A stretch of DNA of 56,227 nucleotides from an uncultured Actinomycetes bacterium. Lineage in GTDB: Bacteria; Actinomycetota; Thermoleophilia; UBA2241. The stretch is from the NCBI GenBank assembly GCA_963755025.1, contig CAVWIH010000029.1, positions 1-56,227 of the forward strand, given 5' to 3'. Under the pieces are notes generated by a model that ran no database searches, had not been told where the DNA came from, and worked only from the letters and a program-made list of their open reading frames with translations. Positions within the stretch are counted from its first letter, which is position 1, and every line of letters starts with the position of its first letter. Shown here piece by piece: positions 50,805-55,269 of the stretch. The position numbers and the translations under genes were made by a program.

Positions 50805-51905
50805 TCAGCCGGCTCCGTCGAGCAGGTCGTCGGCCAGGTCCAGGAGCATCTCGCGGTCCTCGAGTTGCGCGACCCAGGCAGGCGGGATCGCTTCGAGGCC
50901 CAGCCAGGCGCCCAGGATGGCCCCCGCGATCGACGCGGTCGAGTCGCTGTCGCCGCTGATGTTGGCGGCGGCGCCGAAGGCGCCGCGCACGTCGCCCCGA
51001 TAGCGCAACGCGGCGAACAGGCCGATGCCCAGCGCCTCGTCGGCCACCCAGCCCTTGCCGCGCTCCCCGGGCGCCTCGCGTCCGCTGGAGCCGATCTGCG
51101 CGATGGCCGCGTAGGGCTCTTCAGGCGACGCGGCGAGCGCCACGGCGGCATCGACGGCGGCCAGCGAGTGGACCGACCCCGGGTAGGCGGCCAAGGTCGT
51201 TCGAGCTTGGACGACCGCATCATCAAGGTCGAGGCCGCTCACGAGCCGGTCGATCAGCAGGGCCTGAAAGCCCGACGACGTGTCGCTCGTGACGGCGCCG
51301 TGCGTGAGGGCGGCCGCGTCGACGCCGGCCTCGAAGGCGGCCGCGCCGAGGCCGATCAGGCCCAGGGGAGCCACCCGCATGACGCCGCCGCAGCCCTTGC
51401 TGCCGTTGCGCGAGACGTCGTGCGCTCCGCCCGGCACGCCGCCGGCGAGCGCCGCCATGCAGGTGTCGCCCGGCGCCCGGTCGACCCAGTCCGACGAACG
51501 GTGCCACTCGAGGTAACGCTCCCAGATGGCGAGGCGCAGCGCGCCGAGGTCGGGCGTGCCTGGACCGGGACCGGGCGTGCCTGGACCGGGCGCGGGCGGG
51601 TGGGCGCCGCCGCCGTGGGCTGCGCTCGCGCCGTTCGTGGCCGCCCGCCATGCGGTGGCGGCCCGCCAGTCCTGGATGCCGCGCGCGGTCGCGATCGACA
51701 TCTGCGTATCGTCGGTGTAGCTGCCGGCGGCGAAGCGCCGCCACGGTTCGAGGCCGTCGATGCCGTCGGGCGGGAACGCCGCGAGGATCTCATCGCGGGT
51801 CTTGAACTCGACCGGCGCGCCGAAGGCGTCGCCGACCGCGAGGCCCACGATGCACCCACGGCCGCGCGATCGCCGCGCCGCTTGTCCGCTCGTTCCTGCG
51901 CCCAC
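50805..51905 (-). CDS. ADP-ribosylglycohydrolase family protein
   Basis: GLAVGDAFGAPVEF, YTDDTQM, GCGGVMR, THG, GDSDSTASIAGA. Confidence 0.92.
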   Translation of the reverse strand: MGAGTSGQAARRSRGRGCIVGLAVGDAFGAPVEFKTRDEILAAFPPDGIDGLEPWRRFAAGSYTDDTQMSIATARGIQDWRAATAWRAATNGASAAHGGGAHPPAPGPGTPGPGPGTPDLGALRLAIWERYLEWHRSSDWVDRAPGDTCMAALAGGVPGGAHDVSRNGSKGCGGVMRVAPLGLIGLGAAAFEAGVDAAALTHGAVTSDTSSGFQALLIDRLVSGLDLDDAVVQARTTLAAYPGSVHSLAAVDAAVALAASPEEPYAAIAQIGSSGREAPGERGKGWVADEALGIGLFAALRYRGDVRGAFGAAANISGDSDSTASIAGAILGAWLGLEAIPPAWVAQLEDREMLLDLADDLLDGAG

Positions 51906-52169
51906 TTGGCGGCCTCCTTGGGTCCTTGTCTCGGCAACGCTGTTCTACGGAGAGAACGGTAACGGAGTGGCCGACCATAGCAAAGCCGCGGTCCACGGGT
52001 CGTCGTACGCAACATTCGTCGCCGTCGTTTCACCGGCCGGGGCGCTTGGACGCGCTATTCGTGCAATCCAGCACAAACTACGAAACTCCCCAGAGTTTCC
52101 CTGTTCATGGTACGCGGCCTGGTGCGCTTGACGGCGCGCCGCGAAGGCCGATAGCCTCGTCAGCGTGTT

Positions 52170-52294
52170 TACTGGCTAGGCAACGCTCAAGCACTGACCA
52201 AAAGTGAACGGCGCGCTCCATGACGGCGCCCACCCCAAGGAAGTCCACCAGACTTCCGAAAGGAGGCAGGTCATGCACCGTAGACGATTGGCCC
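52170..52294 (+). ncRNA. Candidate structured cis-regulatory RNA, copy 1
   Basis: CATGAC/GTCATG stem enclosing GGAAGTC-N5-GACTTCC; alternative CTTCC-GAAA-GGAGG hairpin over the SD. Confidence 0.5.
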
Positions 52295-52362
52295 CGGCCC
52301 AGGTGCCCAAGCTCCACTTCCTCCACCGCCGCATCTCCTCTGTGGAGACGCCGCCGCGGTAA
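52273..52362 (+). CDS. Putative 29-aa sORF MHRRRLAPAQVPKLHFLHRRISSVETPPR
   Basis: AAAGGAGG 6 nt before ATG; TAA 52360-52362. Confidence 0.35.
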   Translation: MHRRRLAPAQVPKLHFLHRRISSVETPPR

Positions 52363-52651
52363 TCCCCTTCGTTCGCTGATCCGGTCGTGCCGGACGGTCG
52401 CTCGCGGCCGCCTGGTGCTGGTCGCGCCGCGCTTCTGCCGCGGCGCGAGACCGCCGGACCGACGCTCGCCAGGCCACCCGAATGGGCTGCGCATGCGTTG
52501 GCGCTGGACCCACGGACGCCACCTGCCGACAGGCCCGAACAGTCTGGTGGTCAGAACGGGGGACTACGAAATTACCTGCAAATTATGGTTTTCGTACGGA
52601 ACGCGGTGTTGAAGGAAGCCGCGATCTGTGCCGACAAAGACCCTATCAGTG

Positions 52652-52773
52652 TACTGGCTAGGCAACGCCTACCCGACCAAAAGCGAACGGCGCGCTTCAT
52701 GACGGCGCCCACCCCAAGGAAGTCCGCCAGACTTCCGAAAGGAGGCAGGTCATGCACCGTACACGATTGGCCC
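52652..52773 (+). ncRNA. Candidate structured cis-regulatory RNA, copy 2
   Basis: Same stems; differences from copy 1 fall outside them. Confidence 0.5.
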
Positions 52774-52865
52774 AGCCCACTCGCGCAAGACCCCCGCGTC
52801 TGACCGCGGCGGCCCCCACCGCCTGGAGACGACCCAGCGGTATCCCCTTCTTCGCTGACCGGTAG
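52752..52865 (+). CDS. Putative 37-aa sORF MHRTRLAQPTRARPPRLTAAAPTAWRRPSGIPFFADR
   Basis: AAAGGAGG 6 nt before ATG; TAG 52863-52865. Confidence 0.35.
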   Translation: MHRTRLAQPTRARPPRLTAAAPTAWRRPSGIPFFADR

Positions 52866-53113
52866 CGCCGGACGGCCGTTCGCAGCCGTTCGGCGAGAGG
52901 TCTCGCACGCGCCGAGGCGCCTTCCGAGACCACCGGATCGATGCCCATCTGCCACCGGCAAGGGCGTCGCTTGCTCTCACAGAGGCCGGGCGAGCGGTCA
53001 GGTCCTCTTGTCCCGAGACACCGCGAGGTCGCGAGCAGAAAGGCGCGACGGCACGAAGGGGCGCCCGCCAGCGATGGCGGCAGACCCCAGAAAGCAAAAG
53101 AACGGAGTCACGG

Positions 53114-55269
53114 ATGAAGCGCCACGCACTGGCGAACAAGCATCTCTGGAGCATCGCCGCAGCGATCCTCCTGGTCACCTTCGCAGTACCGGCACTCGCA
53201 TTCGCCGCCGGTTCCCGGCACCACAGCCCGAAGCCGTCCGCGTCGGTCGGCTCGACCGCGGCGTCCACGGTGAACTCCACGCTGCCGGCGACCTCGGCGG
53301 TGAAGTCCACCCTGACCGCCGCGGTGAAGCCGACCGCCGCGACCGCGGTGACCCCGGCCACCCTAGCGCTGCGGTGACCCCCGCCGCCGCGACCGCGACG
53401 ACCACGGTCACCGGCCAGACCTTCAACACCTACACCATCCCCGCCGGCACCCACGACGTGGACTACGTCGACTGCACCTTCAACGGCGGTAACGCAAGCA
53501 CAGCCGTGCTCACCCTGAACCAGACCTGCTACGACCTCACCTTCACCGACTGCACGGTCGGCTCGGGCCCCTGGAACGGCGTCACCATCAACGTCACAAA
53601 CGGCAACATCCACGACATCACCTTCACCGGCTGCCACATCCTGGCGGCGGGGCGCATGGGCATCGAGTGCACGCAGCGTCCGGCCTCCAACACCGTGGGC
53701 TACAAGGACATGAAGTTCATCAACGATACGATCGAGCCCTCAGCCGAAGAGGCGATGAGCTTCGACGGCGGCTACTTCGCCGCCAACAGCCTGATCGACG
53801 GCTGCACGATCAACGGCTCCGACAACCAGGCAAACCCGGCCTACTCGGGCGCCATCGAGATCAACGGCCCGACCTACTTCACGGTGCAGAACACGACGAT
53901 CTACGCCTGCCGCAAGAACGCCTTCAACCTCGAAGGTCCGGCCGGCGCCAACGGTCACCTCGTCTTTGCAAACGACACGGTCGACTACTCCGTGCAGAAG
54001 GAGAGCCAGCCCACCGACGCCTCCACGGCGCGCCTCACCGAGCTGCAGAACGTCAACGACGCGGTCTTCAGCAACTGCAAGTTCGTCATGGGCCACGCCT
54101 GGAACGCGGGCTACTGGACGAGCTCCTCGGGCAACGACCTCTCGACCTCGACCCTGACGGGCTCGGGTAACGGCGGCAGCGGCTTCACGCTCGACTCCGC
54201 CAGCACCGGCAACAAGCTGCCGCACGCCCCTTCGGCGACCCCGACCAAGAGCACGACCCCCACGCCCACGCCCACCCCGACCAAGAGCACGACCCCCACG
54301 CCCACCCCGACCCCGACCGTGACGCCCACGCCGACCGCGACCCCGACCAAGAGCACGACCCCCACGCCCACCCCGACCCCGACCGTGACTCCCACGCCCA
54401 CCCCGACCACGACCCCCACGCCGGTCTCCGGCGACGCCACGGTCACCGGCCAGACCTTCAACACCTACACCATCCCCGCCGGCACCCACGACGTGGACTA
54501 CGTCGACTGCACCTTCAACGGCGGTAACGCAAGCACAGCCGTGCTCACCCTGAACCAGACCTGCTACGACCTCACCTTCACCGACTGCACGGTCGGCTCG
54601 GGCCCCTGGAACGGCGTCACCATCAACGTCACAAACGGCAACATCCACGACATCACCTTCACCGGCTGCCACATCCTGGCGGCGGGGCGCATGGGCATCG
54701 AGTGCACGCAGCGTCCGGCCTCCAACACCGTGGGCTACAAGGACATGAAGTTCATCAACGACGTGATCGAGCCCTCAGCCGAAGAGGCGATGAGCTTCGA
54801 CGGCGGCTACTTCGCCGCCGACAGCCTGATCGACGGCTGCACGATCAACGGCTCCGACAACCAGGCAAACCCGGCCTACTCGGGCGCCATCGAGATCAAC
54901 GGCCCGACCTACTTCACGGTGCAGAACACGACGATCTACGCCTGCCGCAAGAACGCCTTCAACCTCGAAGGTCCGGCCGGCGCCAACGGTCACCTCGTCT
55001 TTGCAAACGACACGGTCGACTACTCCGTGCAGAAGGAGAGCCAGCCCACCGACGCCTCCACGGCGCGCCTCACCGAGCTGCAGAACGTCAACGACGCGGT
55101 CTTCAGCAACTGCAAGTTCGTCATGGGCCACGCCTGGAACGCGGGCTACTGGACGAGCTCCTCGGGCAACGACCTCTCGACCTCGACCCTGACGGGCTCG
55201 GGTAACGGCGGCAGCGGCTTCACGCTCGACTCCGCCAGCACCGGCAACAAGCTGCCGCAGAGCAAGTAA
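53114..55269 (+). CDS. Secreted protein with two right-handed beta-helix (pectin-lyase-like) domains and a PT linker (frameshift ~53365)
   Basis: Signal peptide MKRH...ALAFA in 53114-53377 joins the 753-aa frame; repeating (I/L)TFTDCT / IDGCTING / VQNTTI pattern; (TP)n linker. Confidence 0.78.
53402..55259 (+). repeat. 823-nt direct repeat, 53402-54224 and 54437-55259
   Basis: Offset 1035 nt; only differences I could see are GATACG/GACGTG and AAC/GAC. Confidence 0.95.

Follow-up and report, generated by a model that had tools for sequence, protein, structure and literature searches.

A new structured mRNA leader family ahead of secreted-protein genes in one family of uncultured Actinomycetota

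Murein hydrolases are potentially lethal to the producing cell, which makes their restraint a long-standing problem. A cyclic di-AMP (c-di-AMP) riboswitch, an RNA of pseudo-symmetric fold with many helices, is part of murein-hydrolase control in many Gram-positive bacteria, and among Actinobacteria this riboswitch commonly heads cell-wall hydrolase genes. The window analysed here, a stretch of 56,227 nucleotides (nt) from an uncultured bacterium of the Thermoleophilia (GenBank assembly GCA_963755025.1, contig CAVWIH010000029.1), carries upstream of a gene for a secreted beta-helix protein a leader that had been picked out from the sequence alone as a candidate riboswitch or small RNA (sRNA); that it is a structured leader, read from the + strand and placed before that gene, has been borne out. 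It belongs to a new structured leader family of one uncultured Actinomycetota family, and its role is probably that of a lineage-specific structured cis-regulatory leader by which translation initiation of secreted envelope-active enzymes is set. An entire lineage of family rank, made up of uncultured actinobacteria from soil and peat and apparently possessing neither the c-di-AMP riboswitch nor the cyclase, has genes of this class headed by another structured and conserved leader, and this RNA of ~110 nt is a concrete candidate for a new input signal. Its gene-fused, tandem-duplicated and upstream open reading frame (uORF)-coupled forms further offer a natural series of the re-use of a regulatory leader in evolution, and should it turn out to do no more than drive strong expression, annotators would still gain a useful feature and high-GC hosts a compact promoter and ribosome-binding-site module.

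Several described systems invite comparison. In C. glutamicum, nlpC is reported to be controlled by a c-di-AMP riboswitch, probably at the level of translation (PMC9960051). The leader resembles that riboswitch (ydaO/kimA, RF00379) in being a 5' leader before actinobacterial cell-wall peptidase genes, and an RF00379 copy in a sister family precedes an M23 peptidase gene (locus L101); it differs in giving no match to RF00379 (gathering score 38 bits) in 51800-53400 at E values up to 10 or in 10 homologous loci at E up to 1, in its much simpler form and in a host family that is without the cyclase. Four lineage-specific candidate cis-regulatory RNAs, the lysM-Actino, lysM-TM7, lysM-Prevotella and M23 motifs, have been described upstream of lysM and M23 genes, a place said to be often taken by c-di-AMP riboswitches, and are treated as possible riboswitches for which c-di-AMP binding was not found (PMC5737381). 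The leader shares with these motifs the character of a lineage-restricted candidate in the 5' untranslated region (UTR) of genes for cell-wall-degrading enzymes (PMC5737381), and it is set apart from them by their occurrence in other phyla or lineages and before other gene families. RNA thermometers of the ROSE and fourU types likewise have a Shine-Dalgarno (SD) sequence paired, weakly and imperfectly, with an upstream pyrimidine tract in a 5' UTR of several hairpins; in the present leader, however, the tract copies the anti-SD of 16S rRNA, a variable hairpin separates the two strands and the genes are not heat-shock genes, and none of the Rfam thermometer models matched the window region. Finally, leaders of the window's genus resemble uORF and leader-peptide operons in their short open reading frame (ORF) with a strong SD, long untranslated leader and main gene, whereas they differ from leader-peptide attenuators in having no run of regulatory codons, no peptide conserved past ~10 residues and no intrinsic + strand terminator in 51850-53250.

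The family to which the leader belongs comprises 45 instances collected from genomes and 27 from metagenomes. BLAST with the core of the window's leader gave five copies in the window's own genome and matches in 9 of 60 related genomes. Of the 89 genomes belonging to the window's taxonomic family (its order as well), 25 gave matches to covariance models (CMs) built in three rounds, among them every one of the 11 remaining members of the genus, and the models added to the window's genome a sixth, more divergent copy (locus L083, G000:C28:117004-117128, minus strand). The repeat is far beyond chance. In a class-wide sample of 151 genomes, CM matches fell solely within the window's family (6 of 25, plus the window's own genome), the 125 genomes from ten other families of the class giving none. 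A pattern scan of metagenome contigs yielded 80 loci, of which 27 were confirmed by CM, and among 80 scanned loci of RipA-like relatives the motif was found in the 8 closest only (59-92% identity). That the element lies outside the known RNA families was borne out by a cmscan of 51800-53400 against Rfam 15 (4227 models, presumably including lysM-Actino, M23, NLPC_P60, ROSE and fourU) at E values up to 10, in which no family matched the leader and the sole matches inside the repeated region scored 15.5 bits, well short of the gathering cut-offs of 39 and 45. The same search of 10 homologous loci at E up to 1 returned two tRNAs only, and twenty more distant RipA-like loci held no Rfam family at gathering score. 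A literature search gave no description of the motif; the term NLPC_P60 is absent from the main text of Weinberg 2017, the supplementary files of which may list related motifs.

From 5' to 3', the aligned instances consist of a promoter, a hairpin P0, a linker, a hairpin P1, a C-rich tract, a hairpin P2, the SD and AUG. The promoter is of sigma-70 type, TTGAC(C)-N17-19-(TG)G-TA(A/G)GGT, and by a strict regular expression (TTGAC/TTGAA-N-TAnnnT) its end lies 0-8 nt upstream of the element in 32 of the 45 instances and 16 nt upstream in one more (33/45), while most of those missed show, by eye, TGGTAGGGT with a 19-nt spacer. The linker between P0 and P1 often reads CCGACCA. P1 is GC-rich with a free loop and is directly adjoined by the C-rich tract, in most instances CACCUC but CACCCC or CACCC within the window's subtype, after which come two purines, then P2, highly variable in sequence and length, then (C)GAAAGGAGGC and, 5-7 bases on, AUG-CA(C), a start codon standing 5-7 nt after the SD in 45 of 45 instances. 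The loops of P1 and P2 vary freely in sequence and length. Because the 3' end of 16S rRNA in two family genomes, G006 and G013, reads GGAUCACCUCCUUUCU, the SD GAAAGGAGG is a perfect 9-nt complement of CCUCCUUUC within it (in G006, of the same genus as the window), and the tract upstream of P2 copies the anti-SD of the rRNA itself. In the window these parts occur twice. As originally noted, and as confirmed by repeat search and MAFFT alignment, two direct-repeat units of ~480 nt each occupy the 1208 intergenic nt that separate a minus-strand ADP-ribosylglycohydrolase gene (assigned by Pfam; start at 51905) from an ATG at 53114. The features, all on the + strand, are as follows.

52076-52560, +: unit 1, with promoter, leader core, uORF1 and mid-leader and without the 3' block (repeats, alignment).
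52128-52157, +: putative promoter of unit 1, -35 TTGACG at 52128-52133, 18-nt spacer, -10 TAGCCT at 52152-52157 (consensus match only).
52166-52185, +: P0 of unit 1, 5'-terminal hairpin (compensatory changes in 6 of 7 pairs; many U:G).
52210-52230, +: P1 of unit 1, GC-rich hairpin GGCGC...GCGCC, with CAUGAC (52219-52224) in its loop.
52230-52236, +: C-rich anti-SD-like tract CCACCCC of unit 1 (paired with GGAGG by RNAalifold; CACCUC in most other instances).
52239-52257, +: P2 of unit 1, hairpin GGAAGUC-CACCA-GACUUCC (7 of 7 pairs compensatory, 96% paired).
52258-52266, +: extended SD GAAAGGAGG of unit 1, 6 nt before AUG and complementary to the 16S 3' end.
52273-52362, +: uORF1, 29 codons and stop, MHRRRLAPAQ... 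(no Pfam family; no codon-position bias past about codon 11).
52556-53113, +: unit 2, with degraded promoter, core, frameshifted uORF2, mid-leader and 3' block (alignment; no promoter match).
52648-52667, +: P0 of unit 2 (repeat block, CM alignment).
52689-52709, +: P1 of unit 2 (RNAalifold, 45-copy alignment).
52709-52715, +: C-rich anti-SD-like tract of unit 2 (RNAalifold, 45-copy alignment).
52718-52736, +: P2 of unit 2, loop CGCCA (compensatory changes in the alignments).
52737-52745, +: SD GAAAGGAGG of unit 2 (sequence, match to the 16S 3' end).
52752-52865, +: uORF2, 37 codons and stop, with only MHR-RLA in common with uORF1 and then another frame after a 1-nt indel.
53028-53107, +: 3' leader block, hairpin GUCGCG-loop-CGCGAC at 53028-53049, then ...AACGGAG, the second SD at 53101-53107.
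53114-55269, +: main gene, secreted protein with signal peptide and two Beta_helix repeats (Pfam; two frames around 53364-53377).

Comparative evidence for the structure comes from two alignments, which also bear out that homologues with covariation exist elsewhere. In an unbiased MAFFT alignment of 19 close copies, four pairs of P2 carried compensatory double changes and the other helices none. In the alignment of 45 copies, all seven P2 pairs were compensatory with 96% of cells paired, six of the seven P0 pairs were compensatory, and P1, 94% paired, was almost invariant (one of five pairs compensatory). The overall covariation score of these 45 copies was 0.382, as against 0.141 in shuffles and a maximum of 0.114 in slid controls. 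Covariation thus supports P0 and P2, and the frequent U:G pairs fit an RNA read from the + strand. As to the SD, RNAalifold pairs the C-rich tract with GGAGG around P2, a hairpin with a predicted stability of -7 to -22 kcal/mol, and in partition-function folds the tract takes a mean 0.56 of the SD pairing; as judged from sequence, the conserved partner of the SD is this upstream CACCUC/CACCCC tract and not the helices of the switch that had originally been predicted.

Masking of the SD by the 16S-like tract is put forward tentatively, at slightly less than even odds, and a number of observations weigh against it or against a regulatory leader in general. The anti-SD:SD helix, 93% paired over the 45 copies, has no covarying pair among four, and it cannot covary because 16S rRNA fixes both of its sides. 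The 45-copy alignment was itself fitted to the CM and so favours the structure of the model, and all instances come from one family with many paralogues, which means that instance counts are not independent. Thermodynamic support for SD masking was sought and none was found above the shuffled control, the probability of an unpaired SD averaging 0.27 as against 0.31 with the upstream part shuffled. Folding z-scores were -1.2 for unit 1, -2.3 for unit 2, +1.4 for L083 and -3.5 for L057, some of them unremarkable, and these mixed values together with the similar accessibilities indicate that thermodynamics alone shows no more SD masking than in any C-rich leader. In the window's subtype the tract CACCCC moreover introduces an A-A mismatch into the SD pairing. 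Lastly, the conserved single-stranded positions are few, consisting of CACC(U/C)C, A/G-A-G and CGAAA, plus CCGACCA in two subtypes, and SD and anti-SD roles explain most of them; this scarcity beyond the SD and its tract argues against a complex aptamer and also leaves room for a purely constitutive element.

The genes that follow fall into two types. In 29 of the 45 instances the ORF begun by the leader's AUG is a long secreted protein, opening M-H/Q-R/H-R/S-R-L and continuing into a hydrophobic segment. By Pfam, these direct-type proteins are NLPC_P60 (15, most with a PcsB-type coiled coil), coiled coil alone (3), CAP (3) and SBBP beta-propeller (2), the remainder being four short, cut or apparently frameshifted ORFs of no Pfam family and two outside the scan. 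At L083 the copy stands directly upstream of a 366-aa PcsB/RipA-like NlpC/P60 gene, an arrangement that is presumably ancestral. RipA-like NlpC/P60 genes at L067, L059 and L073 (from the metagenome-assembled genomes G007, G014 and G002) look frameshifted or truncated, the catalytic domain lying in a different frame from the signal peptide and coiled coil. In the other 16 instances, both window units included, the ORF is a uORF of 29-73 codons without a hydrophobic segment, and a separate secreted-protein gene lies 150-410 nt further downstream (Beta_helix 8, CAP 3, GH16 1, alginate-lyase-like 1, no family 2, with unit 1 leading to unit 2). All uORF-type copies belong to the window's genus except one from a neighbouring genus, and among the metagenome copies both forms are seen by eye. 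A conserved 3' block, GUCGCG-loop-CGCGAC followed by GGCAAGGAAACGGAG-N5-AUG, precedes the main genes of nine uORF-type loci that differ in gene family; it is absent from unit 1 and present in unit 2 (53028-53107). The case that had been named as a possible refutation, in which the element would be the 5' end of a frameshifted ordinary gene, has held in one part, the core of the relatives being the 5' UTR and first codons of ordinary secreted-protein genes, and failed in the other: tblastn of family ORFs of at least 100 aa that lie behind the core at other loci against 52000-53200 gave the first 8-9 residues and noise only (best E 0.003, 24.6 bits).

Taken together, these data allow a model to be proposed for the leader. 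A housekeeping-type promoter would start the transcript at the terminal hairpin P0, which may shield the 5' end of the mRNA, a stabilising role for which we see an even chance. The anti-SD-like tract would pair with the SD across the base of P2, and translation initiation would be set by the stability with which this three-helix fold closes, a balance that could be shifted by a protein, an sRNA, a ligand, temperature or co-transcriptional folding. In the common and putatively ancestral form, the leader passes directly into the coding sequence for the signal peptide of an NlpC/P60 murein hydrolase, while in the form that the window's genus is proposed to have derived, it leads into a uORF of ~30 codons, followed by 150-410 nt with the conserved 3' block, a weaker second SD and the gene.

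Among the alternatives, the one that survives best, although we consider it unlikely, is a constitutive expression cassette, in which a strong promoter, an mRNA-stabilising 5' hairpin, insulating hairpins and a maximal SD would have spread by duplication. The most conserved parts are indeed the promoter and the perfect 9-nt SD, the accessibility of the SD is no different from that in shuffled controls, and the module precedes unrelated protein families, as would be expected of a portable cassette. However, the CACCUC tract is fixed between P1 and P2 and has been kept across subtypes in which P0, the P1 loop and P2 have changed, and an insulator would need no such tract. In addition, murein hydrolases are usually tightly controlled (PMC9960051).

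A second alternative is that of a true riboswitch, in which a small molecule, either a nucleotide messenger or a cell-wall precursor, would bind where P1, P2 and the SD helix meet and thereby open or close the SD. Its position, orientation and involvement of the SD are typical of translational riboswitches, the covariation-supported fold (P0, P2) is in place, and the gene set of NlpC/P60, CAP and glycan-active enzymes overlaps the regulon of the c-di-AMP riboswitch, which the window's family does not have. RF00379 was found neither in the window's genome, in a search that recovered the B. subtilis and C. glutamicum controls, nor in any of 25 sampled genomes of the family, while three sister families carry it in 12/12, 13/24 and 11/11 genomes (f7 being the 11/11), with up to 11 copies per genome. 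The DAC cyclase domain PF02457 is likewise absent from the window's genome (84% complete) and from all 25 sampled family genomes, as against 25/25, 11/12, 22/24 and 11/11 genomes in families f4-f7. With neither RF00379 nor the cyclase, the window's family (f1) seems, on these genome sequences, to be without c-di-AMP signalling, its hydrolase genes carrying the present leader instead. The four lineage-specific motifs that stand before cell-wall genes elsewhere have also been listed as possible riboswitches (PMC5737381). However, the conserved unpaired positions are few and mostly accounted for by the SD and anti-SD, the P1 and P2 loops are free in sequence and length, and c-di-AMP is unlikely as the ligand because no DAC cyclase was found in 26 family genomes; a riboswitch in this strict sense appears improbable. 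A more far-reaching variant, to which we give somewhat less credence still, is that the leader would be the sensor of a new class of RNA switch that took over murein-hydrolase control after the lineage lost c-di-AMP signalling, with the window holding a two-sensor leader for another envelope signal. Such a signal could come from a nucleotide messenger or a peptidoglycan precursor, or else from a protein whose normal target is the 3' end of 16S rRNA, the last being a candidate since P1 with CACCUC resembles that end, and the coupling to a uORF in one genus might have extended such sensing to a wider set of secreted glycan-active enzymes.

The cis-regulatory leader favoured here also has to be weighed against the switch originally predicted for the window, in which CAUGAC:GUCAUG would bury the start codon and/or a hairpin CUUCC-GAAA-GGAGG would alternate with P2 within the uORF subtype. 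The sequence motifs on which this switch was built are in place, with CATGAC at 52219-52224, GTCATG at 52270-52275, GGAAGTC at 52239-52245, GACTTCC at 52251-52257 and GAAAGGAGG at 52258-52266, and again at +479. The CAUGAC:GUCAUG helix is present in the minimum-free-energy folds of both window units, where it encloses P2 and the SD, it is 80% paired in the 19 close copies, and the copy L038 from another genus has AUGC...GCAU at the same places. However, the helix shows no covariation in the close copies, and over the whole family it is 61% paired with no covariation above shuffles, so that it is best described as a subtype-specific possibility in the folding models, without comparative support. 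The CUUCC-GAAA-GGAGG hairpin fared worse as a mutually exclusive alternative: it accounts for ~4% (0.04) of the predicted SD pairing, it is 75% paired with covariation not above shuffles, and its central U:A pair is kept in 17 of 45 copies and lost in 28, while P2 is much the more stable. The chances of this switch operating are, in our estimation, low.

Least credible of all is the possibility that each unit is an independent small gene for a ~30-aa peptide or an sRNA unrelated to the beta-helix gene: a strong SD and ATG, an ORF length clustered at 29-37 codons in 12 of the 16 uORF-type copies and a unit 1 equipped with a promoter but not directly followed by a main gene would suit it, but substitutions past about codon 11 are spread evenly over codon positions and few are synonymous, the frames of uORF1 and uORF2 diverge after codon 7 although the core is conserved, the uORFs match no Pfam family, the same leader is elsewhere fused directly to long secreted proteins, + strand terminator-like sites number zero in 51850-53250, and the sRNA form in particular is unlikely because every instance adjoins an ORF start. 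The behaviour of the small ORF is more readily accommodated by a translated leader. Its first 9-11 codons are conserved, and synonymous differences between subtypes (CGA UUG versus CGG CUG; CGU AGA versus CGC AGG) indicate that the start is read, suggesting that this part is translated. Past about codon 11, differences between close pairs are even over the three codon positions and mostly non-synonymous, and conservation lies at the nucleotide level beyond the first ~10 codons, in agreement with the earlier claim of conservation of RNA over protein. We read the uORF as what is left of the beginning of an ancestral signal peptide, which would be translated though not for its product. GC-rich hairpins follow the uORF, without a U-tract. 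A secretion-monitor arrest peptide of the SecM/MifM kind was set aside, since the uORF has no hydrophobic segment and, at ~30 codons, is too short.

The tandem arrangement is a local matter of the window, in which a ~480-nt segment from promoter to mid-leader has been duplicated. A repeat search gave a direct repeat of 104 nt (52196-52299 / 52675-52778; 94% identity, spacing 479 nt) and smaller blocks in register with it (52167-52186 / 52649-52668, 52381-52410 / 52859-52888 and 52077-52090 / 52563-52576). A MAFFT alignment of the units has a mean column identity of 78%. The 99-nt core had been said to differ at four positions amid drifted flanks, as is the case: it has four substitutions in the ungapped register and 94 matches, 4 mismatches and 1 gap at its extreme end (95%) in the alignment, and the flanks are 34-69% identical, with 47% in the promoter region, 58% in the rest of the uORF, 69% in the post-uORF block and 34% in the distal part, the P0 block reaching 87%. 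The persistence of 95% identity in the cores amid drifted surroundings argues that selection still acts on both or that gene conversion has homogenised them. Contigs from two other sequencing runs, 5-6% diverged, also bridge unit 1 and unit 2 (X1 record 3, 52253-52714, 25 differences; X3 record 20, 52272-52751), from which it follows that the tandem form is real and common to related strains. The predicted tandem switch stands as a duplication and fails as a feature of the family: the arrangement occurs in 1 of 44 genome loci, the window locus only, and in none of 27 metagenome loci, without recurrence at homologous loci. The unit 1 promoter, TTGACG-N18-TAGCCT, aligns with the TTGAC-N17/18-TA(A/G)GGT of its homologues, whereas unit 2 gave no promoter match by regular expression and has AAAGAC where the -10 TAnGGT would be expected. 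With the -10 box of unit 2 gone, the simplest reading is a single transcript from the unit 1 promoter with two cores and two uORFs, and the beta-helix gene is thus probably expressed from a leader of ~1 kb. A GTAC-containing block (CGTACGA at 52112-52118, GGTACTA at 52596-52602) lies ~10-25 nt upstream of the -35 box and is kept in uORF-type loci (L002, L031-L035, L040-L043); it may be a transcription-factor site or UP-like element.

Other interpretations of the repeated sequence were rejected. A DNA operator would not explain P0, as paralogues within a genome differ in P0 and its many U:G pairs would be mismatches on the other strand. Nor is a mobile element or miniature inverted-repeat transposable element a suitable description, the spacing to the following ORF start being constant from copy to copy and each copy having a promoter of its own. 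The minus-strand ORFs of 129 aa (52105-52494 and 52572-52961) are taken as chance ORFs of GC-rich DNA, the units differing by single-base indels. A tRNA-Sec gene (64 bits; L055 112-205, minus strand) ~1.3 kb upstream of the leader copy of genome G013 is probably unrelated to it. In the beta-helix gene of the window, the signal-peptide ORF (53114-53377) and the ORF 53008-55269 lie in two frames. Contigs of three other runs (X1, X3 and X4) have one extra base after 53364, by which the window's assembly is one base shorter, either through an assembly error or through a real frameshift. A near-perfect hairpin of ~100 nt at 53241-53340, in the part of the gene coding for a Ser/Thr/Ala/Val-rich linker, gave spurious sub-threshold matches to miRNA precursors (31.6 bits against a cut-off of 79). 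The gene further contains an internal direct duplication of ~1035 nt (53380-55266), with identical ORF pairs at 53529-53693 / 54564-54728 and 53667-54170 / 54702-55205, and so consists of two near-identical modules with a Pro/Thr-rich linker between them.

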